Assembly (NCBI GenBank): GCA_035496715.1
Contig: DATJEK010000095.1
Span: forward strand, 264-64,263
Source: Candidatus Eiseniibacteriota bacterium
GTDB taxonomy: Bacteria; Omnitrophota; Gorgyraeia; 2-02-FULL-51-18
Direction of reading: 5' to 3'
Length of the DNA stretch: 64,000 nucleotides
Shown here piece after piece: positions 21,901 through 51,600 of this stretch (within the stretch, counting starts at the first letter, position 1; every line of letters starts with the position of its first letter). Both the position numbers and the translations under genes were made by a program. The notes under the pieces were generated by a model. The model ran no database searches. It had not been told where the DNA came from and saw only the letters and a list, made by a program, of their open reading frames with translations.

Positions 21901-24900
21901 CTCGGCGCGAAGCATCGCGCCGGTCCGGCGCAGGAGCTCCGCCTGGTCGAGCTCGGCGGGCAGGCCTTCGGGCTCCGCGGGTTCGCGGCGCTTGAGAGCG
22001 ATGAATTTGAAATCATCGGCTTGCGCTTCCACCGGCACGGCGAGGACGGCGGGCGAGGCGGCGTTGGCCGGTTCCCACCGGCTGAAGTCGAACGCCCGCC
22101 CTTCGGCGTCGGACGCCGTGAACAGGGCCGGATCGAAACCCGCTTCCCCGCGGTCGGGCAGCTCGATGCGGACCTGCTGTTTCGTTTCCCAGGGTCGCAG
22201 GTCCAGGAGGAGCGTCGTCCAGTCCCCGGCGTCCCCCTTCCAGGCGAGAGTGAAATAGCGGTCGCGGTTCGAATTGTTGAGCACGCGGAGGAAGCGCTCT
22301 TCGCCGGCCGGCACGCGCCGCAGGAATTCCTGGAGCAGTCCTCCCCACGGCGCCTCCTCGACCAGGTCTTTGAGCGCCGCGAAATCGGGCCGCGAGCGCG
22401 CCTCTTCGAGCGTCAGGAAGGGATGCGTGTGCAGGTCGTCGGGGTCGCGGTTCCCGCCGACCGTCTTGATGAACTGGCCGCGATGGCCGATGAAATCGCG
22501 CAGGTCGATCATCGCGGGCACGCCCAGATGCGCGAGCGCCAGGAGGAGCATCGCCGCGGGGCGCGAGGGGCCTCCCATCGCCTTGAGCGAGAGCTGGTCA
22601 AAATTGGACAGATACGCCAGGACGTGCGGGCGGCGGGCGATCGCGTCGAGCACGGCCGGCTCCAGGGACGAGGCGGGCCGTCCCTCGCGCGCCATGCGGT
22701 AGTAGGCCTCGAAGAGCTTGCCCGAATAGGCGGCATCCGCGCCCAGCGCGAAGAGCTCGTTCTGGTCGGAGGGGCTGGGGACGTCGTACGTTTCCATGTT
22801 GAAATGCACGTCGCGGCCGTAGCGCTCCTGCGCGTAATAGCGGACCTCGGCGAAGACGCCGCGCCACAGCTGCTCCTGCCGGGCCCACCAGGCCTCGAAG
22901 GTCTCACCCTCGCGGATGTCGAGGCCGTTCGCCGCCAGCCACGGCTCGAGCGCGACGCCGCGGGACTTCAGCTCGTCGAAATAGCCGCGCACGTTGTTCT
23001 TGAGGAGCAGGTGCCCGAGATCGATCCGGAACTCGCCGACGCCCTGGTCGACGAGCTTCTTCATCGCTTCGACGTAGTAGCGCCTGTTTTCGGGATGGAA
23101 CGGGTTGGGAATCGCCTGGTCCGCGCTGTGCGAGCCGAAGAACGCGAAATGTTTCACGAGGATCACGCGCTCGGTCCCGCCCTCGTTCAGGCGGACGGCG
23201 AACCAGGAGGGGTTGTCGGCGAGGAGCCGCTCGATCCGCGAGCGCTTCCCGGCCTCGTCCTGCTTCCTCCAGTCCCCGTTCCAGTCCGCGCCGATCTCGC
23301 GGTAGAACATGCGGCGATAATTGGTCTCGTTGACCGCGCCCGGCGAGAGCCAGGAAATGAAATCCGTGACGAGCGTGACGCCCATCGCGGCGGCGTCGGC
23401 GCCGAGCGCCTTGAAATCGGCCTCGACGTCGCCGTCGGACAGAAGCGGGTTTTTGCGGCGCATGTCGTCGACGGAAAACGGGTTGCCGAACGAATCCCGC
23501 AGCTCGAGGCCCGCCAGATCGGCGCGGTGCGTCTCGTAACCGGAAACCTGCACCGTCGCCTCGCCGTCCCGAAGATAGTGCGTGCCGGCGTCCGGCACGC
23601 GGTGGACCTCGCGGGAGAGCTCGCTCATCCCGAAGAGTCCGCCGTACACGTAGAGCTTCTTCACGCCCTTCTGCCGCAGCGACGGCAGAAGCTCCCTCAA
23701 TTTCTTGAGGCTGTTCCGGTAGACGAGCCGGCCGTCCCTGAGCTCGGCGCCCAGGTCCATGAGGCTCACCGAGAGGACGAGCCGGTCGATCCCCGGCGCG
23801 GCGCGCAGCTCCGAGGCGTCCGGACGCGCGGAAAGCCGGGCGCCGCGGCCGGCCGTTTCGACGTAGCGGTCGATCGAGACCGCCTGCTCCATCCGCCCCC
23901 AGGCCAGGTAGAGCTCCGTGAACGCGACCCCGATCTCGTTCGGTCCGCCGCTCAGCGCCTCGACGTCGCGCTCCACGGCGTCGCGGATCTCGTTCAAGAT
24001 GTTCCGGACGCGGTGCTGCGCGCGCTCTTCGGCCGTCGTCGTCGGGCGCCGCTCGAGAAGCGAGAGGAAAAGCGTCAGAGACTGGGCGAAATTCATCGTG
24101 AGCACGTCCTGAAGGCTGAGCCCCGGGCGGCTCGAAACCGCGTAACCGGCGGCCACCGCCCAGGAGTCGGGCGCCGCGACGCGCCAGGTGTAACGGCCGA
24201 AAATCCTCGCGACTTCCGGCATCGCGAACATCGACCGCAGGCTCTCGCGGCCCGCGTCGAAGGATCGGAAAAGCTCCGCCGAAGCGCCGTCGCGCGTGGC
24301 GCGAAGGTATTCGGCGAAACCGGCCGCGGTTTCGTTCGAGGTCACGGGGAGCTCCGAGGCGTAATCGGAAACGGCCCTTCCCAGGAGCTCCTGGAACCGC
24401 GCGTCCGCGTTCGCGAGCGTCTTGAAGCCGGGATCCGCCAGCAGCTGTTCGCTGAAATAGGACGGCCCCAGCTCGAAATCGGTCTCGTCGGCGGCCAACC
24501 GCGCCCCCGCCAGGTCGTACAACCGGCTCCAGAGGGCGCCGAACGCAGGCTCTTTCGCGGACAAGGGATGCGATTCGATGAGCGTCTGAGAAAAACGGGC
24601 CGGGCCGGCGATACTTCCGGCCAGCCGCGCGATCGCCACCACGAACGGCTCGCTTTTCGCGGTCGCCAGCGCGTTCCGGAACGCCGCCGAGGCCGGATCG
24701 AGATCATAAAAATAGCCGGACAGGAGCGCTGTGAGGGGACCCGTGAAGTCGACGTTGAAATCTTCCGGCTCGTTGTCGTAATACGACGTGACCCGCCGTT
24801 CGTGAACGACGTCGTAGATCAGGCGCGCGAGATCCAGGAACCGGTAACCCGCCAGCCTGCGGCGCGCCGTCTCCTGATTCGCGCCGCCGGCGACGATTTC

Positions 24901-27900
24901 CTCCCGCCGCAGGGTCGTGTCCAAATCCCGAAGCGTGACGACGGGCCGCCCGGACTCGTCGAAATCTACGCCGAGATTTCCCAGATGCGGAAAGCGGTGG
25001 AAATAGCCGCCGTCGTGATACGCGCGGAAGGCCCGCCCGATCGCCGCGTACACCGCGGCCGTCTTTTCGTCGTCGAGAGGCTCGCGCGTTCCGCTCTTGA
25101 TGTCGACCCTGGACAAACGCGGCCGGAACCCTTCGGATTCGCCCCCGGCCGTATAAACCGTCAGGCGGCTGTCGGGCCCCTTCATGCCGGCGATGACGAA
25201 ACCCACGCGACCGCCCTCGAACGTCTTGCCTTCGAACGCGCCGACCGCCAGCGGGCGGTCCGAGGCGAATGACGTTCCGCCCGGGACGCGCATCTGATTG
25301 AATTCGATCGTTGCCCGTTCGAGCCGCATGGCGCCGTGCGGCACGGCCAGTCTCGCGCGAACCGTCAAATCGCCGTTCGGATCGATGTCCAGCGGACGTG
25401 CCACGGCGCTGACCCCCGCGTAAGGGGGCACTTCCCCGCCGGGGCCGGCTTTCGGTCGTCCGCCCTTGACGCGAAGAACCCGGATGTCTCCCAGAGGTTT
25501 TTCGAGGTCGATATAAAACGCGCGGCCTTCCGAGGCGGGCGCGTCGGCCTCTTCGGCCTTGACGTAAAGTTTTCCGGGATGAGACGCCAGCAGCGGAAGA
25601 AACCCTTCCTCGCCGGCGGTCAGAGCCTCGCGCAGGAGACCCGCGTCGGCGGCGGAAATCCGGCCGTCGGAGAGGGCCTCGAGGAAATCACGGTCAATCG
25701 TCTCGAGCGAGACGGCGGTCCAGCCGAGCTTTTCCGCCGCGCGGACGTCCTCGACGAATTCGGCCTGGGCCAGCCTGGCGCCGTCCGTGCGCACCGCCCC
25801 GGCCGGCCCCGCGGCCGAAACCGCCTTGACGGTCGGAAGGAGCCCCAGTTGCAGCAGCGATTCCTCGGCCCCCTCGGCCGCGCGGGTCAGATGCAGGTCG
25901 GTCTCCGAGATCAGCGGCGGGTCGTGCTTGAGCATCGTGTCTTCGAGCGTCTTGAGGAACGGGTTCCACAACCGCCGGCCGCCGATCAGGACGATCGGGC
26001 GCACGCGGATCGTGTTCGTCTGCATGGCGACGACCAGGTCGTAGAGGCGGTTCATCGTGCCGACGCCGCCCGAGAGGACCACCAGGCCCTTCACGTGGAA
26101 CGGGCCCACGATGCGCTGATTGGTGGGGTCTTCGGTGAGAAACACCTGGCTGGGGAAGCGCCGGCGCATGCTTTTCTCCTCCTCCGTCCAGTTGATGTCG
26201 TAGTCCGAACGGAAAAGCGCCAGCTGGACGAGATCCTCGCGGTCGACTTCGCGGGCGGCCTGGAGGACCGTGCGCAGCACGACGCCGCGCGAGAGGACGC
26301 GCACCGGCACGCCCTGCCGGAAGAGCTCCTTCACCAATTTCGTGAGCTCTCCGAGCTCGGGGCTCGAGAGCGCGGGTTTGCCCAGGATCGCCACCGGCGG
26401 GCGCAGGCGATGGAATCTCCGCATCGCGTCCGCCAACTCCGCGTTCTTGGCGTCGATCTTGTCGTCGGACTCGTCTTCCAGGAGCTCCACCTGGCCGTAG
26501 TCGAGCACCTCGGAGAAGATCTCGCTGGGCGCCTCTCCCATCTTGAACTCCTTGATCGAGGGCCACGTGCGGATCCGGTCGACGATGCCCGCGCGCGTCC
26601 AGAACTCCCGCAGGGCGTCCAGGACCGGCTGCCAGAAACCGATGCCCACGAGCGTCAGCGGCAGGTCCAGCCGCCACGACTCGAAGATCTCGTCGAGGGA
26701 ACCGAATCCGCCGGGGAACGCCGCGACCGCGCGCGTCTTCGTGTACAGCGCGAGCTTGCGGAAGGCGAAATGGTAGAAATTGTAGATCCGCTCGACGAAC
26801 GGGATCGAGGGCTCGAAGAAGTTGAGGAGGATCTTGATCCCCTGGGCCTTCAGCGTCTCGTGCACCCATTGCGCGGGCGGAACGCCGTCGCGCTCCTCGG
26901 CGACCCGCATCGCGACGTAGACCCTCACGAGGCGCTGCATCTGGTCCATCGTGGGGAACCAGCCGACCTCTTCACCGGCGCGCTCGGCTTCCCGCGCGGC
27001 GATGTATCCGGCGAGCACGGCGGCCATGACCGACGGTCCGGCGCCGGTGCGCGGGATGATGTTCAGCTTCCACATCTGCCATCCCAGGAAGAACGAGGCG
27101 GTGTAGACCGCGTGGCCCTCGGGGATGCGGGCGCTGCCGAAGACGGCCATGGCCGCGACGAAGTCGCGCTGCGCCTGCACCACCAGACGGCGCTCGGTCG
27201 TGAGGCGCTCGATGACGTCGTCGATCGGCTCGTAGAACATCCGCAGCTGGGCCGACTCGAGCGTCGACGTCAGCTGGCGGTACGTGACCGCGGGGTTTTC
27301 GAGCCAGTTGCGGACGATCTCGGCCGAGGGATCCGTCCGGAGGATGGAGCTGGCGCCGGCATGCGCCGTGAAGGGCACCTCTTCCCGGAACCGGCGGACC
27401 GCCGCGCCGCCCGAGGCGCTGTCGGCGTCCGCGACGTTCACCTGCCCGACGGGGGTCAGGAGGATCGTGAAGATCTCTTTTTGAAGGCGTTTCGCCTCCT
27501 CGCGGTCGACGGGCCCCAGGAGCGGATCTTCGAGCGTGTCGAAGTCGAGGCCCAGCACCGTCAGGCGACCGAAGCGCTTCACGCCGACGCGAATTTCGCG
27601 GCGCACGCGCTTGAGCGCCGTGACGTAATCGCCGGGCGTCCATTCTTCGCCGACGTGGGAGGCGGTCTTGAGGCCCAGCTGTTTGGCGCGGCGAAGGACC
27701 GGAGCCATCACCCAATTGATGTAGCGCGTCTCGTCGCCGACCGACGCGATGCCCACGACGCGCGTGCGCAGTTCCGGGTCCACGCTCTCGAGGCGCTGGA
27801 GCTCGCCCTCGAAGCGGCGGATCTCGTCGAACGCCGCCCGCCTGGCCTCGTACATCAGGATCAGGCGCTCTCGCAGATTCATGTCCGGCGCGCGCCTTTC

Positions 27901-30900
27901 GTCCCTCGCGCGCCGTTCTTCGGCCTCCTGCTGGCGGGCGATCTCCTCATACGCCTCGTCGAACTCCTTGCGGACGCTCGCCGGGCCGAGGCCGAACGCC
28001 TCTTTCTCGTCCGCGATGAGCAGTTTCAGGAGGTGCTCGCGCACGGCCGTCGCCGTCGGCAGGGCCGCGTAGCCGGCAAGCGCGCGGGCGCGAGCCTCCG
28101 GATCCGACGCGATCACCTGGAAGTGGTCCTTGCGGAACGATTTCAAGACGCCGACGTCGAATCGGCGGCCGTCGCGGCGCGCCCCCGAGACCGCCGCCAG
28201 CTCGCGCTCGGTCGCGACCGCCGCGCGAACCAGAGGCTCGATGGCTCCGGTGTCGGCTTCGGTGATCTCGAGATGATTCACGCCGTGCCGTTCGTACTGC
28301 TCGACGATCCCGCGGCGGATGAGCTCGTAGCGCAGGTTCGGGCCGCCGTCGGTGACCGCGCGGAGATAGACGTGCGCCGTGTCCTGCGGCGCGGGCCCTT
28401 CGGGCGCGGCGAAAGCGCGCAGTCTCTCGGTGAGCTTCTCCCGGGTGTCCTGGGGTCCGCCGTTCGGGAACCCGACTTTGTCGCCGAACACCCGGTCCGC
28501 GTCCGAAAGCCGGATGGACGAGGGATCGAGCGCCGCCTTCGCCAGAAGCCTCGGGTCGGCCGGCAACGCGGGCCGCGCGATGTCCGGATATTCGTCCGGA
28601 TGAAGCGCCAGATAAACGAGCGCGAAGCGGCGGCGGGCGTCCGTGAACCCCCGGTTGACCGTGCTGTCGAGAAAATACGGCAGGAGGTCCTCGGCTTCGA
28701 TCAGGCCCTCCGAGCGCTCGTGCAGGTTGACCTTGGGAAGACGGTCGACGTAGGCGGTCAGCTCCTCGCGGAAGGCGGGGCTGTTCAGCTCGAGACCGAG
28801 AGCCGCCGCGGCGTCGGTGAGATTCGCGCCGGGATGAGCCGTAAAATAGTCCCGCGCCGCGTCGCCCGCCAAACGGGCCCCCGAAACCGGAGCGCCGGGA
28901 AGATTCCTTCCCAAGAGCGGACGCTCACCCAGGCGCGCGCCGGTCCCCTGCGGCGCCGGAGGAGCGGACGGCTCGCCCAGGAGCCTCGCGAAATGCTCGA
29001 CCGACAGGTCGACGTGCTCGGTCTTGTTCGCGAAAAGATAGTGGTCCTCGTTCGGATAGAACCGCACGGTGGCCGCGGTGCCGGTGAAGAAGTCGCGCAG
29101 CCATTTGTTGTCTTCGGGCGCGATCACCTGGTCGCGGCCGCTGCCGACGACCATCAGGCGGGCCGAGCGCTCCTTCAGGATCCGCGGCTGGCGGTTCTCC
29201 GACTTGAGGAGACGCCGCATCGCCAGGTAGATCGTCAGCGAACGCAGCGCGCCGATCTCCTCGGTGTTGAAGAGATACTGCAGGTAGTCGCGGTTCTGAT
29301 GCAGCACCTTCCGGAAATTCTGGAACGTGAACGCGACCGGCGCGTTCATCACGACCACGGCCTTCCAGCGCTCGCCGATGCGCCCGTGAGCCAGGCCGCG
29401 CAGGCCGAGATATCCGCCGAAGCTGAACCCGTAGACGCCGATGCGCTCCCCGTCGATCTCCGGATGGCGCTCGAGGAACCGCGTCGCGGTCTCCATGAAG
29501 CCGTTCATCCGTGCGCGGGTGATCAGCGGCTCGGCGCTTTCGCCGTGACGGAGCAGATCGACGCGCAGGACGCCGATGCCCCTGGCGAGAAGTTTCTCCT
29601 CGAGCTCGTCGAAGTAGGGGTTTTCCTTGCGGTTGGTGAACCCGTGATAGATCTGCACGACGGGCACTTTCCGTCCGGGCGCGCGGCCGGCCGGAAGGAA
29701 GAGATAGCCGGCGATCGAGTGGTCGCGATACGGGATGTCGACGCGGGTGATCTCCGGCACCGGCAGATGACGGTTCCGGTAGTCCATCCGGCGCGCGTCG
29801 ATGTACTCCGCGCGCAGCCTCTGCTCGACGGCCGCGTACGCGGGATTGCCCGGCACCATGAACTGGACGGCCGTGTAGAATTCCTTGATCCGCGGCGTCA
29901 CGGCCGGGTCCTTGCCGGCCGCTTCGGCCGCCCACGCGTCGAACCAGGTGGACGCCCAGCCGGTGATCTCGAACTTCCACGAGTCCCGGCGGATCTTGAG
30001 GACCAGCGGGGAATTGAGGGCGATGCGCTCGACCACCCGGCGCGCGGTGGCCGGATCGACGCCGAGGGACTCGGCGTAACGCTGCGCGCCGCCGTAATTG
30101 AAGAAGAGCCACCGGCGCAGCCAACCCCAGCGCGGGATCGGGATCGACGGGTGGCGGAAATACCAGTTGTCGTTGGCCGGCGGCGTCGGCGACAGCGCGC
30201 CGAAGAGCGGCGCGGCGTCCCCTTCCCGCTCGGGCGGCTCGGGAACCGAAGCCAGACGGGCGCCCTTGCGTCCGGCCAGATGCTCCTGCACGGCCTGTAT
30301 CTGGGGATCGGTCGCGCGGATTCCGGAAAAACCCAGCTGCATCTGGATCGAACCGAAGTCGGGATAGAGAAGGGACTGTTCGAGCAATTTCAGCGCCTGC
30401 TCGAATCTCGCGGCGTCCACCGGAAGACCGAGGCGGTTGACGCGCTCGAGGAGAGTCTCCTCCGCCGGGGGTTGAGGGACGGCGGGCGCGGGAACCGTCT
30501 GCGTCGCGGAGGCCCCGGGCAGTCTCTGCAGAATATCGTCCAGATGGGCCTGGCCGGTGACCAGAAGCACTTTCTTGCCGGGGTTTTCTCCCATGAGCCG
30601 GACGACCTTTTCGTACGTCTTGTCGCCCGAGATACGCACGAGATTCGACAGGATCAACCGTTCTTTTTGACGGATGACCTGCGGCGCCTGCGCCTCGAAC
30701 GTTCCGGCGGCGCGCGAGAGCTCATCCGCGTCCCGGCGGTTCCAGACGCGCGCCCAAATCTGCGCGGACTGGCCGCGCGTCGTCCCGCTCTTCTGCGCGT
30801 GCGCGGCGATCAGGTATCCGGCCACCTCCAGGGGAGTCGAATCGGACTCGCGGGCGATCTGCTCGACGATTTCCCAGTCCCCTTCCGAAGCGAGTGGATC

Positions 30901-33900
30901 CATTATTTTCACGCCCAAAAGCCGCGCGACCCCGACGACCAGCCCCGCCGTCCTGCCGTCCAGGACCTGCAGAGCGGGATCCTCGGAACCCTCGATCAGA
31001 AACAGCCACGCGCCGGCCGCCGCGTCGGGAACGAACGGGTTGTTCTTGCGCATGATCTGGTCGAGATGGTCCAGCGCCTTGGCGTCCCAATGAAATTCTC
31101 CGACCGCCCGGACGTCCCGGCCCATCATCTTGAAATCCTTGAGCACGGACCGGCCCTGGATCTGCTGAAGCCTGGGGCTCCCGCTGATGTTCGCCGCGTT
31201 GGCCTTCCGGCTGAGTTCAAAGTAACGGTCGATGGTTTCGCGTTTTTGCCGGATCGTGGCGAGACGGGCGCCCAGGCTCCGGACCCACCCCTCGAACCGA
31301 CGGATCCGCCCCTGGTCTTTGGCGACGGGGACGCCTTCATACCGCAGCGAAACGCCGCCCGCCAGCCGCGCGCCCGCCCATTGCCGGGCGAAACCGTATT
31401 GCCGGATCATCTCCTGGCGCACGCGCCGCTGGCGCAGGATCTCCACGCGGACTTCGTGCCTGGAAATTTTTTCGTAATCGAAAACGTCGTGGCGGTCGTC
31501 GCGGAATCCGAGCGTGAGCACGTGATGGATCTTCGCGCCGTAAAGCGTGCCGGCGCCCCATTCCCTCTCCAGCCGCTGGATCGCGAAAACCCTCAGCTCC
31601 GCGCCCACTCCCTGCAACGCGGGCCCGGCGGTGCGGGGCCGGTTCCAGGGCGCGATCTCGATGCCCGAGCGGTCGCGGCCGTCCACCGCGAGGGCCGCGT
31701 ATCCTTCGATCGCCCGGTCCGACCACACGAAATACAGTCCGGACAGGATGGTGTCGTCATTTTCGTCGAGCGCCTGCATGAAGACGTCGATGTCGGCCGC
31801 GTGGACGACGGCGCGTTCGCCCTCGAACCAGTCCGCGAGGCGGTCGCGGGCTTCGGAACGCAGGCGCTCGGGCAGGTCGGAGGCCCGGATCACCGGCAGC
31901 GCCTCCATGACCGGCTCATCCCCTTCGCGGTTCAGGACGTAAATCTGTCCGGATTTTTTGACCTCCGCGGAGAGCCTCGCGCCGGAGAGAAAATTCTCGA
32001 CGCGGTCCATCACTTCGAGCCGCTCGGATTCCGTGCCGCCGCGGACGACGACCCGGACCGGGCTTCCCTCGTCGGCGCCGAGCGCCAGGAGGTCGAGATG
32101 ATCGAAGCCGTCGGCGAGGATGCCTTCCTTTTCCAATTCGAAACTCACGCCCGGGAATTCGTCCGTCCTCAGCAGCTGCGCCAGCGACACCGACGGGCGC
32201 ATGTGCAGGCCGCCCTTGATCCCGACCGTCACGGTCTTCGAAAACGCCTCCCCGACGGGCCGGCCTTCCTGCGCGAGACGCGCTCCCGGCCCGGCCGAGG
32301 CCCGGGCCTCGGCGAGAATCCGTTCGCGCTCCGTCCGGGTCCAGAAATACCGCGCGTACGCCCGCGCGGCCATCGCGCGCAGCTGCGGATTGAACGCCGC
32401 GGGGTTTTGCGCGATGCGGGCGCGGAACGCCTGATCGAGGCCTGTCAGCGAAGGCGGCGCGCCGAACTCCGGCGCGAGCGCCTCGGCGAGATAGATCGCC
32501 GCGATCTCGTAGATCCCGCCCCGGGCGGCGGCGTAGGTCGTGAGCGTGTAGGCCGGGAAGGGGTTGCGCGTCGGGTCTTCGTCGGCGACCGCCCGCAGGC
32601 GCGCCTCCAGCTCGACCATGGCCATCACCAGCACGCGCCGGCGTCCGGCGTCCGGTTCGGCGGAGAGGCGCGCCAGGAACGGGTTCGCGAAGGGCGCTCC
32701 CGCCTCGTCCCGGTCGCGCAGCGCGGCGCGAACGAGCGGCTCGGCGTCGGGGCCGATCGCGTCGCGGCCCGTGCCGCGCAGTTCGTTCAGCCGGAACCCG
32801 AAACGGAAAAGGTCGAAATGATTCAGCTCCTCGCCGCCGGCCGCCGCCCAGTAAAGCCGGCTCAGCGCTTCCGCGCTCTGCAGCGGGCCGAAGAAAAAGA
32901 GCGAGTTCCACGCGAACGGATCCGCGCGGACCCCCGCCGGAACGGGCGCGCCGCGCTGCGTGAGTCCCCAGAGCTCGCGGTAGAGGTCGACCGTCTTGGC
33001 CTCGTGCGCGGCGATCGTGGGCACGTACTGCCCGCCGGCGATTTCCGTGACGGGTTCGATGATGAAACGGTCCTGCGCGGCCTGCGCGCCGCCGAATAGA
33101 CCGGGCGCGCCGTTCCGGACCGGCGGATCGAGGATACGGTACACGCGCGCGGTGTTCCCGTCGGCCGTCGTCTTTTCGTAGGTGCCGACGACCGGCGCCG
33201 TGATGAGCGGGGGCCTCCCCTGTTGGATGAGCTCGCCCGCCATGCGCAGGATCGGGCGGCCGACGTACAGGCGCTTGGAAAGAAAGAGCGGCGCCAGCGA
33301 TTCGACGAAAGCGCCGTAGAGCCGGTCCGTGTCGACGGGGGTTTCGGCGGCGAGCGCGGCCGGCGGCTGAAAAGAGGGATCGAGAACGCGCGCCAGCGGA
33401 AGCAGGCGTTCCCCGGCGGCGGCGCCCGAAAGCCCGGCCGGCGAGGCGGCGCGCGTCCAAAGCTCGCGGAACACGGGCTCGAATTCCCTGCGATACCAGT
33501 CCGCCGTGTCGAAAAAGGGCGAGGCGGGGTCCTGGCGGAAACCCCGCTGGACGTCATCGAACGCGCGAAGCACCTGCTGGCGCTGGCCGGCGTTCAGGTT
33601 GAAGCGCTTGAAGAGGGCGGCGATCTCGCGGTCCGCGAGATTCCGGGTCGCCAGGAGTCCCGTCAGGGCGGCGTCGCTGACACCCTGACGCCGGGCCTTG
33701 GCGTCGAAATCGCGGACCTGCGCGCGAAGCTTGACCTTCAGCGCGTCGAGCGCCTGCGGCGGGACCCGCCATTCGGCGAGCCGGGCGCCCGCCGGGCGCA
33801 CGCCGACCGGCGGTCCGTCCGTGGGCCTCGGATAGGTGCGGCTGACGATGGAGAGCTCTTCCGCGAACGAATTGTGCACCTCCCGCAGGATGGCGCGGTT

Positions 33901-41892: not shown

Positions 41893-42045
41893 TTAGACTA
41901 TGAATATATAAATATATTTACTAAGAGACGCGAATAAAAAATACGCGCCAAAATAAACTCTCGAGGAGTCCATTTTTTACCTTATTTTGCCGTTTTCAGG
42001 GTTTGAAAATAGAGACCGATTTTACCCATGTCTATGCATGGCATA

Positions 42046-42074
42046 AGTTTACATGACCCCCTAGCGGGATGCAA
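42046..42074 (-). promoter_or_regulatory. Candidate sigma70-like promoter for giant gene 1: -35 TTGCAT (42069-42074), 17-nt spacer, -10 TAAACT (42046-42051)
   Basis: Read on the reverse complement. Each hexamer matches consensus at 4 of 6 positions. Several other AT-rich hexamers in the island are equally possible. Confidence 0.2.
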
Positions 42075-42115
42075 AAAAATGTGAACTCGTAACACTAATA
42101 TATGCATAGACTTAC

Positions 42116-42206
42116 AAAAAAAGGAGGCTACGCCCCGGACGATGTGGGATCGGTGTTCTGGAACCCGGCGCCGTCAGGCGGCGGGACAGATTCGCGAGGC
42201 GTAGCC
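42116..42206 (-). terminator. Candidate intrinsic terminator for giant gene 2: 9-bp stem (GGCUACGCC / GGCGUAGCC) enclosing a structured ~63-nt loop, followed by UCCUUUUUUU
   Basis: Stem arms are at 42198-42206 and 42126-42134, with the U-tract (plus-strand A7) at 42116-42122. This lies 12 nt after the TAA stop at 42218-42220. The large loop contains an internal 5-bp hairpin (CGCCG-ccuga-CGGCG). Confidence 0.35.
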
Positions 42207-42217
42207 CAGACTTTTCG

Positions 42218-45200
42218 TTATGCGGCAGACCCGACCGCTTTGATCGCGAACGCGGCCTGCTTGATCAAATCCACCAGTTTCTGGAGCGGCGGCAGCCAGC
42301 GGAAGATGCCGTTGCCGAGGTTTTCGAGTCCCGGCACGCCGGTCGTCTTGCCGTCCGACAGGCGCAGGCGCACGGCCACGTACGGCATGCCGTTGGCCGA
42401 CTTGGCGCCGGCGTTGAGCTGCAAAAGAAGGGGTTTGCGTTCCTGCTCGCCGGTCTCCCCCAGCTTCAGGTCCGTGCCTTCGCGCGCGACCATGATCCAG
42501 GGGTTGCGGTAAATTCCGTCGGCCTTCGCCAGCTGCGAGAGGTCGCTCAGGTTCGGGCGGAACACGAGCCGGCCCGGGAACGCCGCGGCTTCGGGATGCG
42601 CGGGAAGGCCCGCGGCCTCGTCGCCTTCGATGTATTTGCGCTTCAGCGTCTCTTCCGAAGCCAGCGCGGGGTCGAAAGCCGGATTCGTCACGACGAGCTG
42701 GTTCACGACGGCGAGCTGCTGGCCGGTGCGCCGGTTCATTTCCTCGATACGCGAATTCACCTCGTTCAACTGGCGCACGTAGTCCCATGAAAGCATGCTT
42801 TCGTGGGTCGCCACGACCGTCGTGCCCGCCAGGTTTTCGAGCGGAAGGTCCGCCGGATCGAGTCGCAGCGCCCTCTCGGTCCTCTCGAGGATCCGCTGTT
42901 TCGCCGCCGCGAACGCGGCCGAGAGATTCTCGAGCTTCTGCGCGAGCTCGAGGCCGTTGTCGGCGACGAGGTAATCGTTGGCCGCGGCGCCCGCGCGGAT
43001 GAGCTGAACGCGGGTCTCGGCGTCGGTCGGCGCCTCGAGCGCCGCGTCGAACCGTTTTTCGAAGTCGCCGAGGTCCGCCTGCCCCGCGATGAGGACCGGC
43101 CGCGCCGCGGAGATGACGGCCGCGCCCGAGAGCGCCCTCAGCTCGCCGTCCGCGGTGATCTCCAGCCGGACCGCCTGCGCGGCGGGCAGCGCGATCCCGG
43201 CGAGCTGCCGGCGAAGCTCCGCGACGGAGGCCAGTTTCAATTCGTCCAGAGTCCCTTTTTCGTTTTCGAACACGAACGCGATCGTCTCGAGGAGCCTGCC
43301 GGTGATTTCGCCGGCGACCGCGCGGGCTTCGGCGGCTTTTTCCTCGCGAAGGCGCAGCGCGTCCGCGAGCCTCGCCTCGAGGACGTCGGGCGCATTCACG
43401 GCGCTCTCGTCGACGAGCAGGTTGACGGGGGCGGACGCGGAGGCGGCGAATGCTTCCGCTCCGGTGACGGCGACGAACTTGAAATCCGTCTCGAGGCGCG
43501 CGGCGATCCGCGTGTCTTTCAGGGCTTCCGCGATCCGGCGGCTCTTCTCGCCAAGCTCGGCGGGGTTCGAGACGAGCGCCAGGACAATGGGCTCTTGTAA
43601 AAGAGTTGAAGAAGTGACGTCAAAAGAGGGGCCTCCGCCTCGGACTTCGGTGGCGAGGCGCGCCCCGTCCGCTCTCTCGCGGATGACCCGGCGGGCCCGC
43701 CGCGTCGTCGCGACCGGCAACGTTACGCTCTGCCGGGGCAGCGCGGCGAGGACCGTCGAAAGAAGCTCGGCGACGGCGTCGCGGGTGTCCGCATGCACTC
43801 TCTGGCCCTCGAACGCGATGACGCCGATGAAGCCGCGGACCACGTCCGTCCAGAGATCCGACTCGGCGGGCACGGCGTCGGCGGCCAGCGACGTGAGGCG
43901 CTCGGCGGCGCGGCGCATCACCAGCGGCCGCTGGTTGTTTTCCAGCCCGTTCGAGAGTCTCGCGAAATAAAGGACGCGGTCCGACTGGATGCCGGCGATC
44001 GCGTCGATCGCCGCCAGGCGGATGTCGTCGGCCGTCTGGTTGGAAGGCACGCCCAGATCGGTCGCGCCGTTCAGGATCGTCACCAGCGGCTGGGTGGCGG
44101 AAGGATCCAGCTGGACCGCCGCCCCGATGTCGCGCACGGCTTCGATCGCGAAGATTCTCAGGGCCGGCCTTTCCTGCGGGGTCTGGGCCAGGCCCAGGAG
44201 CGCGGCCACCGCCTGCGGGGCCTCTCCGGGGTGGGTCGTGGTGACGCGCGTGACGACGCGGCGCAGCATGTCACGGCGGGTGGCGACCTGCGCGCCCCGG
44301 TCGCGGATGCTGAGGCCGTCGATCAGGTAATCGGGCCCCACGCCGGGCTGGGCCGGCACGAGGTTCTGCACGGCCGCGTAGGCCTCCGCGAGATGATTGG
44401 CGAACGTCCGCACGTGTCCGCGGCGGAGGCTCGGGAATCCGGCGGCGGCGGCCTGCACGGCGGCCGCGAACGCCGCCTGCGTCTCCGGGCGGACGGCGGC
44501 CGTCTGCGGGTTGACGGCGGTCGTGCGGAACGCCACGAAACCGTCCGGCGTGAAGCGGTCGCGGACGAGCCCGGTCGCCGCGAATTCGACGAGATAGTTG
44601 GCTTCGACGGGCAGATTGTCGCGGGTGCGGTTGCCCTGGTTCCAGGCGGTCTGCCGCGCCTCGAGCGTATTCAGGATCCCTTCCACGCGCGTGACGATGA
44701 CCGGCACTTCCTGCCAGAGCTCGGCGTCGTATCGCAGCGCCTCGCGGAGCTCGGCGAATTCGTCGAACGTCGAGAAGCGCAGCGCGCCCCGCGGCTGGGC
44801 GATCGCCGCTTCGGCCCTCGAGCGGACCGCGGCCGTGGCGTCCGACACCGGGGTCGCGATGTCCGGCTGGACCGGCAGATGCCTCAGGCTGCGGTACGCG
44901 ATGCCCAGCGACGTGCGAATGGCGCCGAGGTCCTCCCGCAGCCAGTCGGGCGCGATGCCGATGTTGCTCGTGACACGGTTCATTTCGGTCGCGCGGCGAA
45001 GCTCGCGGATCGTCGCGCCCAGATTCCGGCGGTAGGTCGCCGGCAGGGCGAACGGGACGCCCTCCTGCAGGCTGTCGGAGTAGACCGCCAGGAGCGTGGC
45101 GAAAGACCCGATCTCGTCATTGGCCCTCTGCTGGAACCGCTCGAGATAGCGGCGGAGGTATTCGCGGTGGCGCGGGCCCTGGTCCCCGAGCTCCAGACGC

Positions 45201-45600
45201 GCGTGTTCCAAACGGTAGTCGACGAGGCGCAGATTGAGGATGAGCTGGGCGAACGACGCGTACTGGAGCGCCCGGCGGTATTCGCGTTGGAGCTCCTCCG
45301 GCACGTGGGGCCCGGCCAGCTCGAGCTGCTGGATGACGCCCGCGATCTCCCTCGTTTCGGAGGTGCGCATGATGAGCTGCTGGGTCAGGTCGCGGCGGAA
45401 ATTCACGGTCCGGTTGATCGTGTCGATGTCCGCGATGACCCGGCGCGCGCTTCCCGAGGCGGCCTCGACCTCGCTCAGCTGGCGCGCGAAATCGCGCGTG
45501 AAATTGAGGAGGACCGGCAGGATCTGCGTCACGGTCGCCCCGCCCTCGTTGAGGATCGCCAGTCTCGCGCCCGCCACCGCGTCCCTGGCCCGGACGAGAT
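42218..45600 (-). other. C-terminal ~1,100 aa alpha-helical region with HEAT/ARM-like repeats (AIEAVRDIGAAVQ..., IRLAAIDAIAGIQS...)
   Basis: Repetitive A/L/I-rich helical hairpin pattern in the translation. No catalytic motif recognised. Confidence 0.3.
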
Positions 45601-48600
45601 ACGGCGCGAGTTTCGCGTCGTCCTCCTGGGCGTCCGTGTCTTCCAGATAGGCCTTCACGACGTCCGCGGCGTTCCCCAGCTTGGCGGCATCTAGGTCGCC
45701 CGTGACGACCGCCGCTACGGGAGTCTTGTCCTCCATCGCCAGCATGAGGACCGTGAACGTGTTGTCCGCGCCCACCCGCTCTCCGGTGCCGACGTTCTCG
45801 ATCGAAAGCTCCGCTCCGCCCTTGCGCAGCTCCGCGGCGATCTTCACGAGCCGGCCGGCGGGGCCCATGTGGAGGCCGTTGGGATTGTTGAGCGCGGTCT
45901 CGCGCCGCTCCTCGGCGAGCCGGGCGCCCTGCGCGAGGGCCTGACGGATGCGAGTGGCCTTGTCGTTCAACGCGCGGGCTTTTCTCAGATCCTCCGCGAC
46001 CTCTCCCTGCGTCTCCTGGTCGAGCGAGGCGATGCCGGTGATCACCGCGGCCGTCTGCAAAAGCGTCCGGGTCAGAAGCGGGCGGATCTGGTCGCGCTTG
46101 GCGGAGTCCAGGCCTTTCAGCGCTTCGACGGAAAGATCGACGACGCTGCGGTCTTTTTCTTTTTTCTGCGGAAGGAGCGCGACGGCTTCCTTGAAAGCCT
46201 CCTGCGCCGACGTGAGCGGGGTCTTCACCTTGCGGTTCAATTCCTCGCTCCGGCGGGCCGTCTCGGCCGCCTCGAGCTTCGCGTCGCGGTGCCTCTTCAG
46301 GAGCACGTAGACGGCGGTCCCGCCGCCCAGGATGCCGACGGCGGCGATCACGTAGACGACGGCCGAGGTCTTCGCGGCCCCGACCGGCAAGGCCTTCTCG
46401 ACTTCGGCCTTCGTCTCCTCGACGACGACGGGCGGTTTTTCCTCCGCCTTTTTCGCCTCGGGTTCCTTTTTCTCCGCGGGTTCTTTCTTTTCTTCGGGCT
46501 TGGCCTTGGGCGCGGGCTTGTTGATGTCCAGACGCGCGTCGCCGCCGCGCCAGTACGCCAGAGGATCCCGCTCGAAGAACACGTACATCGACGCCATCGC
46601 CGTCACCCGCTCGTCGAGCGGAGGGATCCAGCCGAAGCCCGTGCCCTCCGCCTTTCTCCATCCGCCGAGGCCGGGGCCGGCGGCGTACGGGTTCGGACGG
46701 GTGTAGAGCCTCGTGCGCACCGACGCGAGGTCCTTGCGCAGCCCCTCGATGTCGTCGGCCGTCACGGATTCGGTCGGGTGGTTCAGATAACGGTCGATCA
46801 TGAGCGTCAGGACCGTGTCGGTCTCGCGCTCGGCGTCCTTGCCCCTGCGGGCGATGGCGGCGTTCCATTCGGGCGGGATCAGGGCGCTCGTCTCGTCGAT
46901 CACGCGGCCCTTGATCTGGTTCGTGTAGTCGAGGCCCGCCAGCGGGAGCTTGAGGCCGGCCGGACGATAGTCGGCGGTGCGTCCCGCCTTCTCGCGGATC
47001 GATTTCCACATCCGGAACGACGCGCCCTTTCCGAAGAGTTCGTCGATTTTCTCGACGCCCAGCGACAGGAGCGTCCACGTCCCGCCCGAATCCGTGGCGA
47101 ACTGGTTTTCGATCTCGAGGCGTTTGCGCGCCTGGTTCCAGAAGACGCCCATGTAGAGCGTGCCGTCCGCGGGGTTCAGCATGCCCTTCTGCGACTTCCA
47201 TTCCCCGCCCTCGGTCTGGACCCAGACCTCCTGCTCGCTCAGGAAGCGCAGGATCTTGTCCGCCGCGTCGGAATAGGCCTTGTCTTTCGTCAGGTTGAAC
47301 AGCGTGCGAAAGGCCGCGTAGGCCGACACGTTGTTCTCGGAATTGAGGTAGTAGTAAGCCGTGTCGTCGTTCTTGCCGGCGGCGGGATTGTACTGGCTGC
47401 GGGGGCCGTAGCGGACGCCGCCTTCGGTGGTCTGCAGGCGGAGCATCGCCTTGCCGAGCTTGTTCACGAGCGCGACGTACGCGCGGTTTTCAGGGGCGTC
47501 GACGCCGCCGTATTTCTCGATGTAACGCGAGGCCGCCATCGCCAGCCAGGCGTTGGGGCCCGTGTGCACGTTCCAGAACGACCATTCCTTCGTCCATCTC
47601 CCGGTGGCGTCGGTGAAATTGAAAATGTAATGCACGTCGGCGTCGAACGGCTCGAACGCGCCCTTGTTGTCGCGCGACGGATACGCGCCGAGCTGGAAGT
47701 CTCCGTAGCGGCCGCTGGCGTAAATGTCGAGGATGCGCTGGGCCGATTTCTGCTCGCCCTGCTCGGTCAGGATGAGGACGGCCAGCGCCGTGTCATACAG
47801 ACCCGACCCGCGGCGGATGATGAGCTCGTGGTCCTTGTTCTCGAACTTGATGCCGGAGACCGCGGGGACGTGGAACGTCGCGGGCAGGCCGTATTCGAAG
47901 CGGCCTTTCCGGTTGAAGCTCTGGGTCTCGATGAACGTGACGGCGTCCTTGGGGGTCTTGAGCGTGCGGATGACGCCTTCCTTGTCCTCCAGCACGTTCT
48001 GCGCGACGGCCTGGTTCAGGAAGGGGTTGATCGACGGCGGCAGGACGCTGAAGGAAAGAAGGGTGATCGCCAGGACCGCCGGACGCAGGAACCCGCCGAA
48101 GGTCCGCCCGAAAAACCGCACGGCCCTTTCCAGGAGCGACGGGCGCGAGGGGACCACGACCGGCGCGGCGGCGGAGGGGGTCTCGGCCGCCAGGCGCGCG
48201 CCCTTGACCTGCTGGTAATAGGAGCTTTCGTGGAGGCCGACCTTCACCCCCTTCTGCTCGAACGGCGTGAAGTCCAGGATCTGATAATCGTTGGCGCCCG
48301 GGGTCTTGCCGGGTCGGGCCATGAGCTCCGACCGGAACTGCGCGATCTCCGCTTCCACCGCCTGGCGGCTTTCGGCGCTGGGGTTCTTGAGGTAGAGCAT
48401 GAGCACGCCGCCGTGGCCGGCGCCGGCCGGCTTCGAGGCGACGATGAGGTCTTTCGCCTTCAGGCGCTCCGTGATGGTCTTCATCTCGGGCGTGATGAAG
48501 CCCTCCACGACGTCGTTGAACTGCGCGGCCTGGCGCTCGGCGAGCCGGAAGAGCTCGCGGATGTCGCCGCCGTGGCCGTCCTTCAGCCCCTGCAGCCAGC

Positions 48601-51600
48601 TCTCCGCGGCCTGCACGTCGGACTCTCCCTCGCGGAGGTTCTTCATGTAGTTTTCGTCGCGGCGCAGGTATCCGCGGATCAGCTGTCCGAGGACGTCCTT
48701 GGCCTCATGCCGCTCGGTGACGACGAGGACCGTGTGTTTCTGGATGTTCGAGAGGATTTCGGCTTCCCGCTCCTTGAGCGTGGCGTCCTTCTCGATCTGG
48801 TCGGCGAGCGTGCCGATGTCGCCGTCGATGGTGCTGAGCAGATGCAGGCCCGGCCAGGTGATCGCGTCCTGCCAGCCGCCGAGCGACTTCAGGCGGACTT
48901 CGAGGAACGAGCCCAGGAGAGCCAGCTCTTCCTTCGTCAGGCCTTCCGAGCGGCCGCTGACCCGGAGAAGCCCGTTGATGAAGAAGCTCGCCAGCATGAC
49001 GCTCCCGCCCAGGCCGGTCCGCGGCGGGATGTTGGTCACCAGTTCCACCGTCATGTCGAGCTGCTTGTCTTTCAGGTAGTTCTGCGGATTACGGGCGCCG
49101 TCCGGAATGAAACCCGTGGCCCGCAGCGCGTCGAGGAAATATTTGGCCTGCGGGTCCTCGTCCGGGCCGAGCTCGGCGACCGACTCGGCGTCGTACACGT
49201 GCGTGTATTCGGCGGTCGTCTCTTCTCGGACCGAGCCGTCCGGCTGCTCCGTGAATTTCTTGTACGTGCCCTTGTAGCTGACCCGTCCGCCGCCCGATTC
49301 GCTTTCGCGGACCGAGATCTTGAGCTCGTAGGCGGGCCGCGCCTTGCTCGGCTGGGGCTTCTGCCCCGCGGGGGCGCGCTTTCCGCCCGTCAGAAGGTTG
49401 GCCTGGAAATTCAGCACCTTTTGCGGATGCGTCGCCGAGCCGGCCCGGGAAACCAGGTCGCTGGCGAGGATGTGGAGGAGGTCGAGACGGAACGACGTGC
49501 TGAACTCGTACACCTTGCTCGTCCCCTGCCCTTCCATCTCGATCGGGCGGTAGAGACGCTCCGCGTAGGGCGCGAGCTTGGCCTCCATGTACTGGAGGAG
49601 GCTCGCCATCACCTTCTGCCAGTAGAACTCCGACAGCTTCTGCTGGTTGGCGCCGGTGAGAGACTTCTCCTGCGGGTAATACGGAATCGGCAGCTCCCAT
49701 CCTCTCGGGATCCCCAGGACGCCCTCGCGCCCGTCCTGATCGTAGATGTCGGACAAAAGCTGGTAGGCGCGCGCCTTCTGCATGAAGATCGGGGCGTTGG
49801 CCGGGACGACCGGCGTCGGACGGTCGACGAAATCGCGCAGAGCCTGCGCGATCTCCTTGACGTCGGCCTGGGTCACACCGCGCAGGAGCTCGTGGTTGGA
49901 AACGTCGAGATCGCGCTCGATGGCGTCGAACACCGCGGGCACCTGGGCGCCCGTCGTCCGCGTGGCCGCGAGGGCCCCGTTTTCCTTCTCCCCGGCCTGC
50001 CAGCGGATCTGATGGCCGCCGAACCACTGCGGCCCCTGGTGGGACGGGTCGATGTGGCGGGTCGTCACGAACGTGCCCTGGTAAGTCTGGGTGCCCGCCT
50101 CGTAGGGAACGAAGCCGGCGCTGACGCTGAACACGTACTCGGTCCCGTTGTCGGTGATGTCGTCGACTTTCGCCTGCCGGAACGCCCAATCCCTGCCCTC
50201 GATCCCGTAGTGCAGGTAGAAGGGCGAGACCGTCCGGAAGATCTCGACGTCTTTCACGGCCGATTTGAGAATGCGGATCTGCGTCTTGAAAACGATCTGC
50301 CTCGTGTGGAGGTCGAGGGTGACTTCCGGGATGCGCTTGGCGCGGTCGGCCTCGCGGGGGACGACGGCCCACAGGTCGTCCGCGTCGTCGGCCCAGGCGG
50401 CGGTCTGCACCGTCTGGGAAAGACGCGCCCCCGCCGGCACGCTGACCGGGACGCCGATGTGCCAGCCGGGCGGCAGCTGCTGGTACGGGTCCCCTTTGAT
50501 CAGGTGGCTGCCCGGGTGCTCGCGGTCGTAGGTGCGGCGGCTCTCGGAGAGCGGCGCATAGTGCGCGGGCCGGATCTCGAGCACCTGGAAATGCGTGCTG
50601 TCGGGATAGAAATCGTCGACCTTGTAGCGGCTGTTGAAATCGTCCCGCACCCCGAGGGACTCCAGGTCCGTCACGGCGAGCCAGGCCTTGCCGTCGATGT
50701 GGACGGGGTGGTTCGCGAAATGGAACGGGATCGTCACGTGCCGTCCGCCGGCGAGCGTCTTGGAAAGGACGATGGCCGTCTGCGGCTGGCTCTGGTGGAC
50801 GTGGAAGTCCGCGCCGCCGATCACCGGTTTGAGCGCGTTCAGCCGCGCGAAGACTTCCGGATTCCAGTCCTCGATGACCGAGAGGTAATCCGGGTACAGC
50901 GCGGTGATGAGCGCCATCACGGCCGGCACCGCTTCGCCGAAGCGCTCGGCGGCCTCTTCCGGCTTCAGGCGGACCAGCTGGCGGAGAAAATTCCGGAACC
51001 CCTGCGCGGGATTGGCGCTGTTGCGGATCTCGCGGATGCGGCGGCCCAGGAGCGCCGTCGGCAGCTCGCGCCCGTCGATGAATTCTTCGTTGATCGCCGC
51101 CTCGACGAAACGCGTCGCGTCGTCCCGGTCGATCTCCGAAACGCGCTGGAATTCGCCGTCGGCGGCCTGCGGGACCATCCGCAGGACCTGGAAATGCGTG
51201 ACGCCCAGCGGCAGACCCTTGCGCGCGAGCTTCTGCAGCGTGTGGGGCGGGTACGTGCGGCCCGAAATCACGTTGTACGCCGCGTAAATCTGGGGCTTGC
51301 CGGTCCCCTCGAAGGCCTCGGGCCCGAGCACCGCCCGCACGCCCTCGGGATAAAGCGTCGCCCGCGCCTTCGTCGCCGAAACGCTCTTGTAGATGAATTC
51401 CCTCCAGTTGACCGAGACGATCATCCGCTCGCCGTCGATGACGGCCGCGTACGCCTTCAGGTTGCTCGAGGTGGTCTGCAGGGGGGTCGTGTTCTTGTCG
51501 AGGTAGCGGATGAGGTTTTCCCGCATGCGGATGTCGTGCATGTACTCCTCGAGCGACTCGCGCGTGTCCCCGTCCCCTTCCTTGTAGCGCAGCAGGAGCT

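Follow-up and report, generated by a model that had tools for sequence, protein, structure and literature searches.

The Omnitrophota encode giant proteins whose role is an open question and most of whose length has no annotation. Sugar-related domains have been described on them in two preprints. West-Roberts et al. 2023 (10.1101/2023.11.21.568195) reported glycogen-synthase-like GT5 domains and sugar-phosphate enzymes on such proteins, and Nielsen and Lui 2026 (10.64898/2026.06.07.730766) defined a 'multi-enzyme metabolic' cluster class with a sugar-metabolism module and found a community of sugar-metabolism domains that co-occur statistically across hundreds of giant proteins. The 2026 catalogue also lists a signal-peptidase-II domain type for the Omnitrophota giants, and 80% of its long-protein sequence clusters are singletons. 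Neither preprint refers in its main text to GT35, alpha-amylase/GH13-like, GHMP or HPr modules. We analysed a window of 64,000 nucleotides, which is the whole stretch from position 264 to 64,263 of contig DATJEK010000095.1 (assembly GCA_035496715.1, Candidatus Eiseniibacteriota bacterium, assigned to the Omnitrophota in GTDB). It contains two giant open reading frames (ORFs), named A and B. A preliminary description of the window had proposed a theme of alpha-glucan and sugar metabolism on both proteins and had held that giant genes are usually discussed as adhesins or predation devices. The latter statement is out of date, as the sugar modules in the 2023 and 2026 preprints show.

ORFs A and B together fill the window and are both encoded on the minus strand. 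With the known Omnitrophota giants of the 'Archaeovorin' type and of the multi-enzyme class they share the size range above 10,000 amino acid residues (aa), the non-repetitive chain, a signal peptide and transmembrane helices, and the large number of enzyme domains. They also share a module with the SecA DEAD and preprotein-binding domains but without scaffold and wing, which is a hallmark of these giants, as well as HEAT repeats, methyltransferases, a signal-peptidase-II-like segment and sugar-metabolism domains. They differ in the GC content of the window (68%) and in a GT35/GH13-like cassette that is split over two neighbouring genes. The window proteins are a divergent, GC-rich member of the described class of Omnitrophota giant proteins and not a new type of system.

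The reading that we prefer, with a probability of about 0.5, is that A and B are two adjacent multi-enzyme giant envelope proteins of the Omnitrophota type, which carry a conserved alpha-glucan cassette amid a wider set of enzyme modules. The chains are long, non-repetitive and poor in cysteine, and separately folding enzyme modules would lie between their transmembrane clusters. The core of the cassette would be formed by a GT35 module with its pyridoxal phosphate (PLP) lysine, a partner module of 540 aa that we call 'post', and a GH13-like hydrolase or transferase with an Asp/Glu/Asp triad. The two ORFs and the core modules are located as follows.

928..41892, minus strand: giant ORF A (protein 1 of the preliminary description), 13,654 aa, complete, with an N-terminal signal peptide
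42218..64000, minus strand: giant ORF B (protein 2 of the preliminary description), at least 7,260 aa, truncated at its 5' end where the window stops
52031..54343, minus strand: GT35 alpha-glucan-phosphorylase-like module (B aa 3220-3990), found by profile, PDB and AlphaFold2 (AF2)/Foldseek comparison
50411..52033, minus strand: 540-aa 'post' module (B aa 3990-4530) directly after GT35, found by comparison with related loci
21973..23784, minus strand: GH13-like module (A aa 6037-6640) with the putative triad D6291/E6367/D6432, found by homology, motifs and profile

Pfam was run on long pieces of A and B and then on tiles of 1,000 aa, and gave a weak Phosphorylase/Glycos_transf_1 signal in B. 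When B aa 3051-4000 was compared with the PDB sequences at E<=10, all 11 matching sequences were alpha-glucan phosphorylases, aligned on ENYNV and on EASATSMMKAALN. The latter is found at B aa 3826-3838 and represents the PLP-lysine signature E-A-[SC]-G-x-[GS]-x-M-K-x(2)-[LM]-N (PROSITE PS00102), with one deviation (Gly to Ala) and the PLP lysine at aa 3834. An exhaustive HMMER search with B aa 3041-3990 returned 99 relatives, 40 of them at E<1e-30. The strongest were all large proteins, and nearly all relatives had 2,000-8,000 aa, with about 750 residues aligned at 35-58% identity. When 16 family members were aligned, the E, A, T and K of the signature (E-A-x-x-T-x-x-x-K) were invariant in all 16, and further invariant columns were GGLG, NH, TNG, R-R-x-V-x-Y-K, GGR and YN. 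Among the phosphate- and glucosyl-site residues (K568, R569, H571, Y573 and K574), the invariant motif R-R-Q-V-x-Y-K keeps the equivalents of R569, Y573 and K574 and replaces H571, as aligned by motif and not by structure.

The profile made from these 16 sequences had 48 GT35 matches among the PDB chains (E 1e-11 to 3e-5), and 7 of the 10 relatives tested passed the PF00343 cut-off with 33.7-51.3 bits. The AF2 model of the module had a predicted local distance difference test score (pLDDT) of 87.5 and a predicted template modelling score (pTM) of 0.89. Its best 50 Foldseek matches in the PDB were glycogen, maltodextrin and starch phosphorylases only (E 3.5e-16 to 3e-14), aligned over the full length with about 860 columns and in the two-domain GT-B phosphorylase fold. 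Although divergent, the GT35 domain of B is complete.

With GlgP and MalP the module shares the GT-B fold, the PLP-lysine motif, GGLG, ENYNV and R-x-x-x-Y-K, and, as with GlgX and with the HPr-GlgP pair of E. coli, a GH13-type partner and HPr occur in the same system. In contrast to the solved phosphorylases, to which it is 12-15% identical, it is embedded in a giant chain and has the H571 and E572 equivalents replaced. Canonical GT35 enzymes are cytoplasmic, whereas the relatives of the window module carry signal peptides.

A profile search for GT35 in reference genomes, one genome per species, yielded 56 loci, which were inspected for 10 kb on either side. Most of them carried the label Candidatus Omnitrophota, and a few were labelled Elusimicrobia or Planctomycetia. 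In 34 of the 56 loci GT35 is followed by the 'post' module, which had no match in Pfam, NCBIfam or the PDB sequences, including a PDB profile search. Weak PF08323 matches were observed in the N-terminal half of the GT35 module among the relatives, and one of them, P0080, carries PF08323 as well as PF00343. Some of the reported 'GT5/starch synthase' domains may therefore be the GT35 module; if so, they point to the breakdown of glucan and not to its synthesis.

The GH13-like module of the cassette is found in A. When A and B were compared locally with the 99 relatives, A aa ~6000-6630 proved homologous to a module adjoining GT35 in several of them. The GH13 regions I to IV read DFISWL, EFRIDLGH (D6291), NMETYD (E6367) and LSNFDQ (D6432), and R-x-D, E and N-x-D were invariant in the eight aligned sequences, which included one canonical GH13 protein. 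The A module matched this canonical member with E 2e-9 in blastp, and four of the eight family members matched PF00128. The profile of the eight sequences, with the canonical member included, gave 191 PDB matches at E<=1, with E down to 5e-9, and the 60 listed among them were all GH13-type chains. Unlike in canonical GH13 enzymes, the histidines of region I (DxxxNH) and region IV (NHD) are missing, and that of region II alone is kept. Since the window sequence has no library match and lacks these two histidines, 'GH13-like' is the correct wording.

A GH13-like module near GT35 and on the same strand was observed in 11 of the 56 loci and in 11 of the 99 proteins, often on one polypeptide. This recurring pairing supports a functional alpha-glucan unit. 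Glycogen and maltodextrin are classically broken down by such a combination of GT35 with GH13, as in GlgP with GlgX or MalP with MalQ. As judged from the related loci, the conserved unit comprises GT35 and 'post', with or without the GH13-like module, and the rest of the sugar theme is particular to the window locus. In the preferred reading the GH13-like module would trim or debranch an alpha-1,4/alpha-1,6 glucan, either the cell's own glycogen or a glucan derived from prey or host. The GT35 module would then phosphorolyse the trimmed glucan and release glucose-1-phosphate at the membrane. The conservation of the key residues argues for active enzymes. The locus thus offers a biochemical handle on the giant proteins: the compact phosphorylase-like module of 770 aa, its conserved partner and the GH13-like module can all be expressed and assayed.

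Further sugar-related modules are present, together with two hydrophobic segments that flank one of them. The GHMP kinase of the fucokinase type, the six-hairpin module and both HPr modules would be lineage-specific additions to the cassette.

48215..49327, minus strand: GHMP kinase module of the fucokinase type (B aa 4892-5262), by Pfam, NCBIfam, PDB and motifs
48020..48097, minus strand: hydrophobic segment (B aa 5302-5327) with an Arg-rich flank before it, a putative membrane span ahead of the six-hairpin module, by hydropathy only
46556..48013, minus strand: (alpha/alpha)6 six-hairpin-like module (B aa 5330-5815), by AF2 and Foldseek
46298..46384, minus strand: transmembrane helix (B aa 5873-5901) after a Lys/Glu/Pro-rich linker and with KRHRD behind it, by hydropathy
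45674..45904, minus strand: HPr module of B (aa 6033-6109), motif GLHMGP, by Pfam and NCBIfam
32008..32241, minus strand: HPr module of A (aa 3218-3295), motif GLHMRP, with GARL at aa 3203 and 3304, by Pfam and NCBIfam

For the GHMP module the N domain PF00288 scored 22.7 bits, marginally above the cut-off of 22.3, and the C domain 15-19 bits against a cut-off of 21. The kinase half of the NCBIfam fucokinase model PRK13412 matched B aa 4959-5211 with E 4.6e-12, and fucokinase structures of the PDB matched at E 0.007. Motif II (PPRTGLGGS) and motif III (KPAGAGHGG) are both kept. With L-fucokinase/GDP-fucose pyrophosphorylase the module shares these motifs and a kinase-domain match of about 250 aa, and differs by the lack of the guanylyltransferase half. 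Word-indexed homologue searches with the module alone and with B aa 4892-6133 found nothing.

The six-hairpin module had no Pfam match even at E<=1, and no NCBIfam or PDB sequence or profile match. Nine stand-alone homologues of 440-600 aa without annotation were found, and their gene neighbourhoods were uninformative. The AF2 model, computed from an alignment with these homologues, was of moderate quality (pLDDT 67, pTM 0.78) and showed paired helices. Its best 50 Foldseek matches were six-hairpin sugar enzymes and a few related toroid proteins (E 6e-5 to 3e-3, TM 0.2-0.5), spread over AGE-type epimerases, GH8, GH76, GH105, GH100 and the GH15-like dextran dextrinase. The model supports the call of an (alpha/alpha)6 fold; no specific CAZy family acting on alpha-glucan, such as GH15, GH133 or GH65, emerged from it, and the likeness to the enzymes of the AGE superfamily, GH8, GH76, GH105 and the GH15-like dextran dextrinase is at the level of the fold. 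The module sits between the two hydrophobic segments, and the Arg- and Lys-rich sequences on their outer sides fit the positive-inside rule. By these charges the six-hairpin module would lie in an extracytoplasmic loop, and the kinase and HPr would face the cytoplasm.

Both HPr modules passed the gathering cut-off of PF00381 (23 bits) with 31.4 bits in A and 28.9 bits in B, and TIGR01003 of NCBIfam matched with E 3.5e-8 and 4.7e-6, respectively. The active-site His15 (G-L-H) is kept in both. Arg17 is present in A, whereas the HPr of B differs from the canonical protein by a Gly at this position. In E. coli, HPr binds and phosphorylates glycogen phosphorylase (PMC13324651), which makes a role of the HPr modules plausible, and they may regulate the phosphorylase module in the same way. 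PDB entry 9s8k, which represents this precedent, was among the fold matches of the GT35 model.

The preliminary description had named HPr on both giant proteins, a GT35 phosphorylase, a GHMP sugar kinase and an (alpha/alpha)6 domain on B, and a GH13-like barrel on A. All these calls were borne out by the evidence given above. It had placed the theme between 22335 and 49325, and in this point it has to be corrected: position 22335 corresponds to A aa 6519 at the end of the putative GH13-like barrel, and the GT35 module lies 2.7 kb beyond 49325. It had also held that the GH13 and six-hairpin calls would be left unsupported if dbCAN found no significant CAZy hits beyond GT35. By the sequence libraries alone this would have been the outcome, and Pfam gave no match for either even at E<=1, but the remote-homology steps reverse it. 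Since the module calls are right and the PLP lysine, the GH13 triad, the GHMP motifs and the HPr histidine are kept, the carbohydrate-active reading is justified.

The membrane-spanning nature of the chains had been proposed as well, and hydropathy agrees with it in both A and B. In addition to the two segments around the six-hairpin module, the following features bear on membrane attachment and export.

18673..19332, minus strand: transmembrane cluster of A (aa 7521-7740), by hydropathy, with a weak signal-peptidase-II-like match
54881..58243, minus strand: two transmembrane clusters of B (aa 1920-2190 and aa 2894-3040), upstream of the GT35 module, by hydropathy
40093..41844, minus strand: signal peptide and conserved N-terminal 'head' of A (aa 17-600), common to 37 of 99 related large proteins

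The cluster of A matched the signal-peptidase-II family (Peptidase_A8) weakly, with 21.2 bits at a cut-off of 25. The signal peptide of A is of the classic type, MKLRALSAVLIAAFFCQDLASA/QG. It is followed by the head of about 550 aa, which contains the invariant motifs IQDAH, EGA and GGFH and had no Pfam match and no PDB profile match. A signal peptide is also present in most GT35 relatives, without a strong hydrophobic segment between it and GT35, and in the short relatives P0022 (1,032 aa) and P0027 (940 aa) the signal peptide is directly followed by the GT35-like module. This suggests that the GT35 family is exported. Unlike the canonical GT35 enzymes, the phosphorylase-like family may thus act outside the cytoplasm, and an exported GT35 enzyme would be unusual. 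In B the GT35 module follows the transmembrane clusters, and the counts of segments in B and in P0055 are too uncertain to fix its side of the membrane.

B aa 22-3190 and the C-terminal domain of B (aa 6902-7259) have colinear counterparts in the relative P0055 (5,973 aa), which lacks aa 3190-6900. From this colinearity, about 2,300 aa are probably missing from the N-terminal side of B. The lack of aa 3190-6900 in P0055 implies a conserved scaffold into which GT35, GHMP, six-hairpin and HPr have been inserted as a block of cargo (B aa ~3190-6900; 43300-54430). A GARL motif was found at the junction in both B and P0055. Over parts of their length, the giant ORFs reached a best identity of 47-62% to any relative. 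The GC content of the 56 related loci was 37-61%, so that the window with 68% is outside their range. At one of these loci (L001) three large genes follow each other.

Several findings have to be set against the reading of two envelope proteins with a glucan cassette. The GT35 sequence of the window scored 17.9 bits with PF00343 and did not reach the gathering cut-off of 27, and the GH13-like module had no Pfam or NCBIfam match and stayed below the cut-off of PF00128. GHMP, HPr and six-hairpin modules were present in none of the 56 loci and in none of the 99 GT35-bearing proteins, and their functional coupling to the glucan cassette is therefore without comparative support. Export, if it occurs, would bring a PLP enzyme out of the cytoplasm, together with the HPr, LOG and methyltransferase-like modules of A, to a place where their cofactors and partners are not expected. 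Finally, the GARL motifs at the module borders could mean that the chain does not stay intact. The proposed theme is partly supported. The other three modules are absent near GT35 in the relatives, and most of the remaining ones (LOG, alpha/beta-hydrolase, methyltransferases, deaminase, histidine phosphatase, HD and SecA-like) show no evident connection with alpha-glucan. The theme therefore covers a subset of the content and is not its organising principle. The tethered metabolon that the preliminary description had envisaged is plausible as a hypothesis.

The GARL motif leads to the rival explanation that survives best, although we consider it unlikely. It says that the chains are polyproteins, or cocktails of effectors, which are exported and cut at GARL (at RSE[LMVI]R elsewhere) into free enzymes of domain size, and that these act in the periplasm, outside the cell, or in a prey or host cell, for example by mobilising its glycogen. 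GARL was found 32 times in A, with 1.5 copies expected, and 7 times in B, with 0.5 expected, usually with A or S as the next residue. None of the 39 copies was inside an identified domain (27% coverage, P ~4e-6), and many were 3-50 aa from a domain edge. Examples of the motif are found at A aa 3203 and 3304 (~31980-32285) and at B aa 3232 (~54305). The second variant, RSE[LMVI]R, was observed 76 times in the relatives with 0.9 expected, and the relatives carry one or the other motif at the same position just before the GT35 module. By its distribution the motif is a punctuation between modules. It could be a processing site, or equally a linker or a docking signal. It opens a direct route to ask whether the giant proteins act whole or in pieces.

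Cleavage of giant proteins has already been raised as a possibility by West-Roberts et al. 2023 (10.1101/2023.11.21.568195). It would be in line with the classic signal peptides of most relatives, including the short forms, with the GARL motif at the junction of the cargo that P0055 lacks, and with the depletion of cysteine. A has 3 cysteines in 13,654 aa and B has 1 in 7,260 aa. The three of A are one residue in the signal peptide and the two of the CxxC of the cytidine-deaminase module. In 32 of the 40 closest relatives the cysteine content was below 0.25%, with a maximum of 0.74%, which shows that the depletion is family-wide. MARTX-like multi-effector toxins and viral or bacterial polyproteins likewise combine numerous unrelated enzyme modules in a single exported chain with a recurrent short motif at the borders. 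In contrast to these, A and B showed no autoprocessing protease domain and no repeat regions. Cleavage is further disfavoured since no protease was found, the conserved head being without Pfam or PDB match, since the transmembrane clusters within the chains argue for a retention of at least some parts in the membrane, and since modules that depend on ATP or phosphoenolpyruvate would be useless outside the cytoplasm unless they were injected.

Also improbable, in our view, is that the sugar theme is a by-product of the accretion of unrelated domains in a fast-evolving scaffold, with GT35 and GH13 as the only real unit. The absence of GHMP, HPr and six-hairpin modules from the related loci and proteins speaks for it, as do the stand-alone homologues of the six-hairpin module in their uninformative neighbourhoods and the high share of singleton clusters in the 2026 catalogue. 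Of roughly 18 recognised modules, about 12 (two thirds) have no evident link to sugar. The co-occurring community of sugar-metabolism domains in the same catalogue and the documented direct interaction of HPr with glycogen phosphorylase (PMC13324651) speak against it.

More doubtful still is a far-reaching form of the cleavage idea. Here the polyproteins would be exported by means of the signal peptide and the SecA-like module and cut at GARL, releasing dozens of enzymes. Among these would be a phosphorylase that is extracytoplasmic or delivered to prey, its GH13 partner and HPr-like regulators, which would hijack the glycogen and sugar-phosphotransfer metabolism of the host or prey.

Very improbable is a non-catalytic use, in which the enzyme-like modules would serve an adhesin or predation device as structural or glycan-binding parts. 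In its favour, the modules diverge strongly and stay below family cut-offs, the region I and IV histidines of the GH13-like module are lost and the literature favours adhesion or predation roles. Against it, all 16 aligned family members share the PLP lysine and the putative phosphate-site residues, the Asp/Glu/Asp triad is invariant in 8 of 8, and GHMP motifs II and III are kept, as is the HPr histidine.

Apart from the modules of the preferred reading, that is, two giant envelope proteins with a glucan cassette, the chains carry a number of other domains. Pfam matched an FrsA-like alpha/beta-hydrolase, LOG, methyltransferases, DUF218, the SecA-like module, HEAT repeats, a dCMP deaminase, a histidine phosphatase, HD and, weakly, signal peptidase II. 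Three of these modules of A are located as follows.

29020..30003, minus strand: alpha/beta-hydrolase (FrsA-like), within the range of the preliminary description and not sugar-specific, by Pfam
25855..27159, minus strand: LOG/TIGR00730 Rossmann module, within the same range and not sugar-specific, by Pfam and NCBIfam
13783..15201, minus strand: SecA-like module with DEAD motor, preprotein-binding and P-loop domains, without scaffold and wing, by Pfam

In the SecA-like module PF07517, PF01043 and PF21090 are present and the PDB match covers only SecA residues ~77-435; the SecA scaffold and wing models had no match in A. The LOG, alpha/beta-hydrolase and SecA-like modules were found in none of the 56 related GT35 loci, and a genome scan with A aa 3201-5400 gave no relatives. 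Just after the cytidine-deaminase module, A has a His/Asp repeat, HDHDHDHEHDH, at aa 11647-11675 (~6890-6960), which may bind metal. Directly behind it follow two GARL motifs at a distance of nine residues.

No internal repeats were detected within or between A and B at E<1e-3, and a repeat-adhesin architecture was therefore rejected. The GC content at third codon positions (GC3) in the frame of the giant ORFs was 0.88-0.91 (0.88 in A). On the plus strand the window also has long ORFs of 2,400-4,725 aa, for example at 45869-60046, 8881-17319 and 25336-33099. These were rejected as genes and are shadow ORFs, since they mirror the GC3-rich frame of the minus strand.

An Rfam scan of the window found no RNA family. 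The spacer between the giant genes (41893-42217) has 325 bp and is strikingly AT-rich in the window of 68% GC. Within it, B is followed by a terminator-like hairpin and A is preceded by a promoter-like site. The two genes may be transcribed separately. Downstream of A, on the same strand (1-836), lies an exbB gene (MotA_ExbB, 98 bits), for whose product a look-up of the exact sequence found no identical protein. With the beginning of an exbD/tolR-like gene that follows, it indicates a diderm host.

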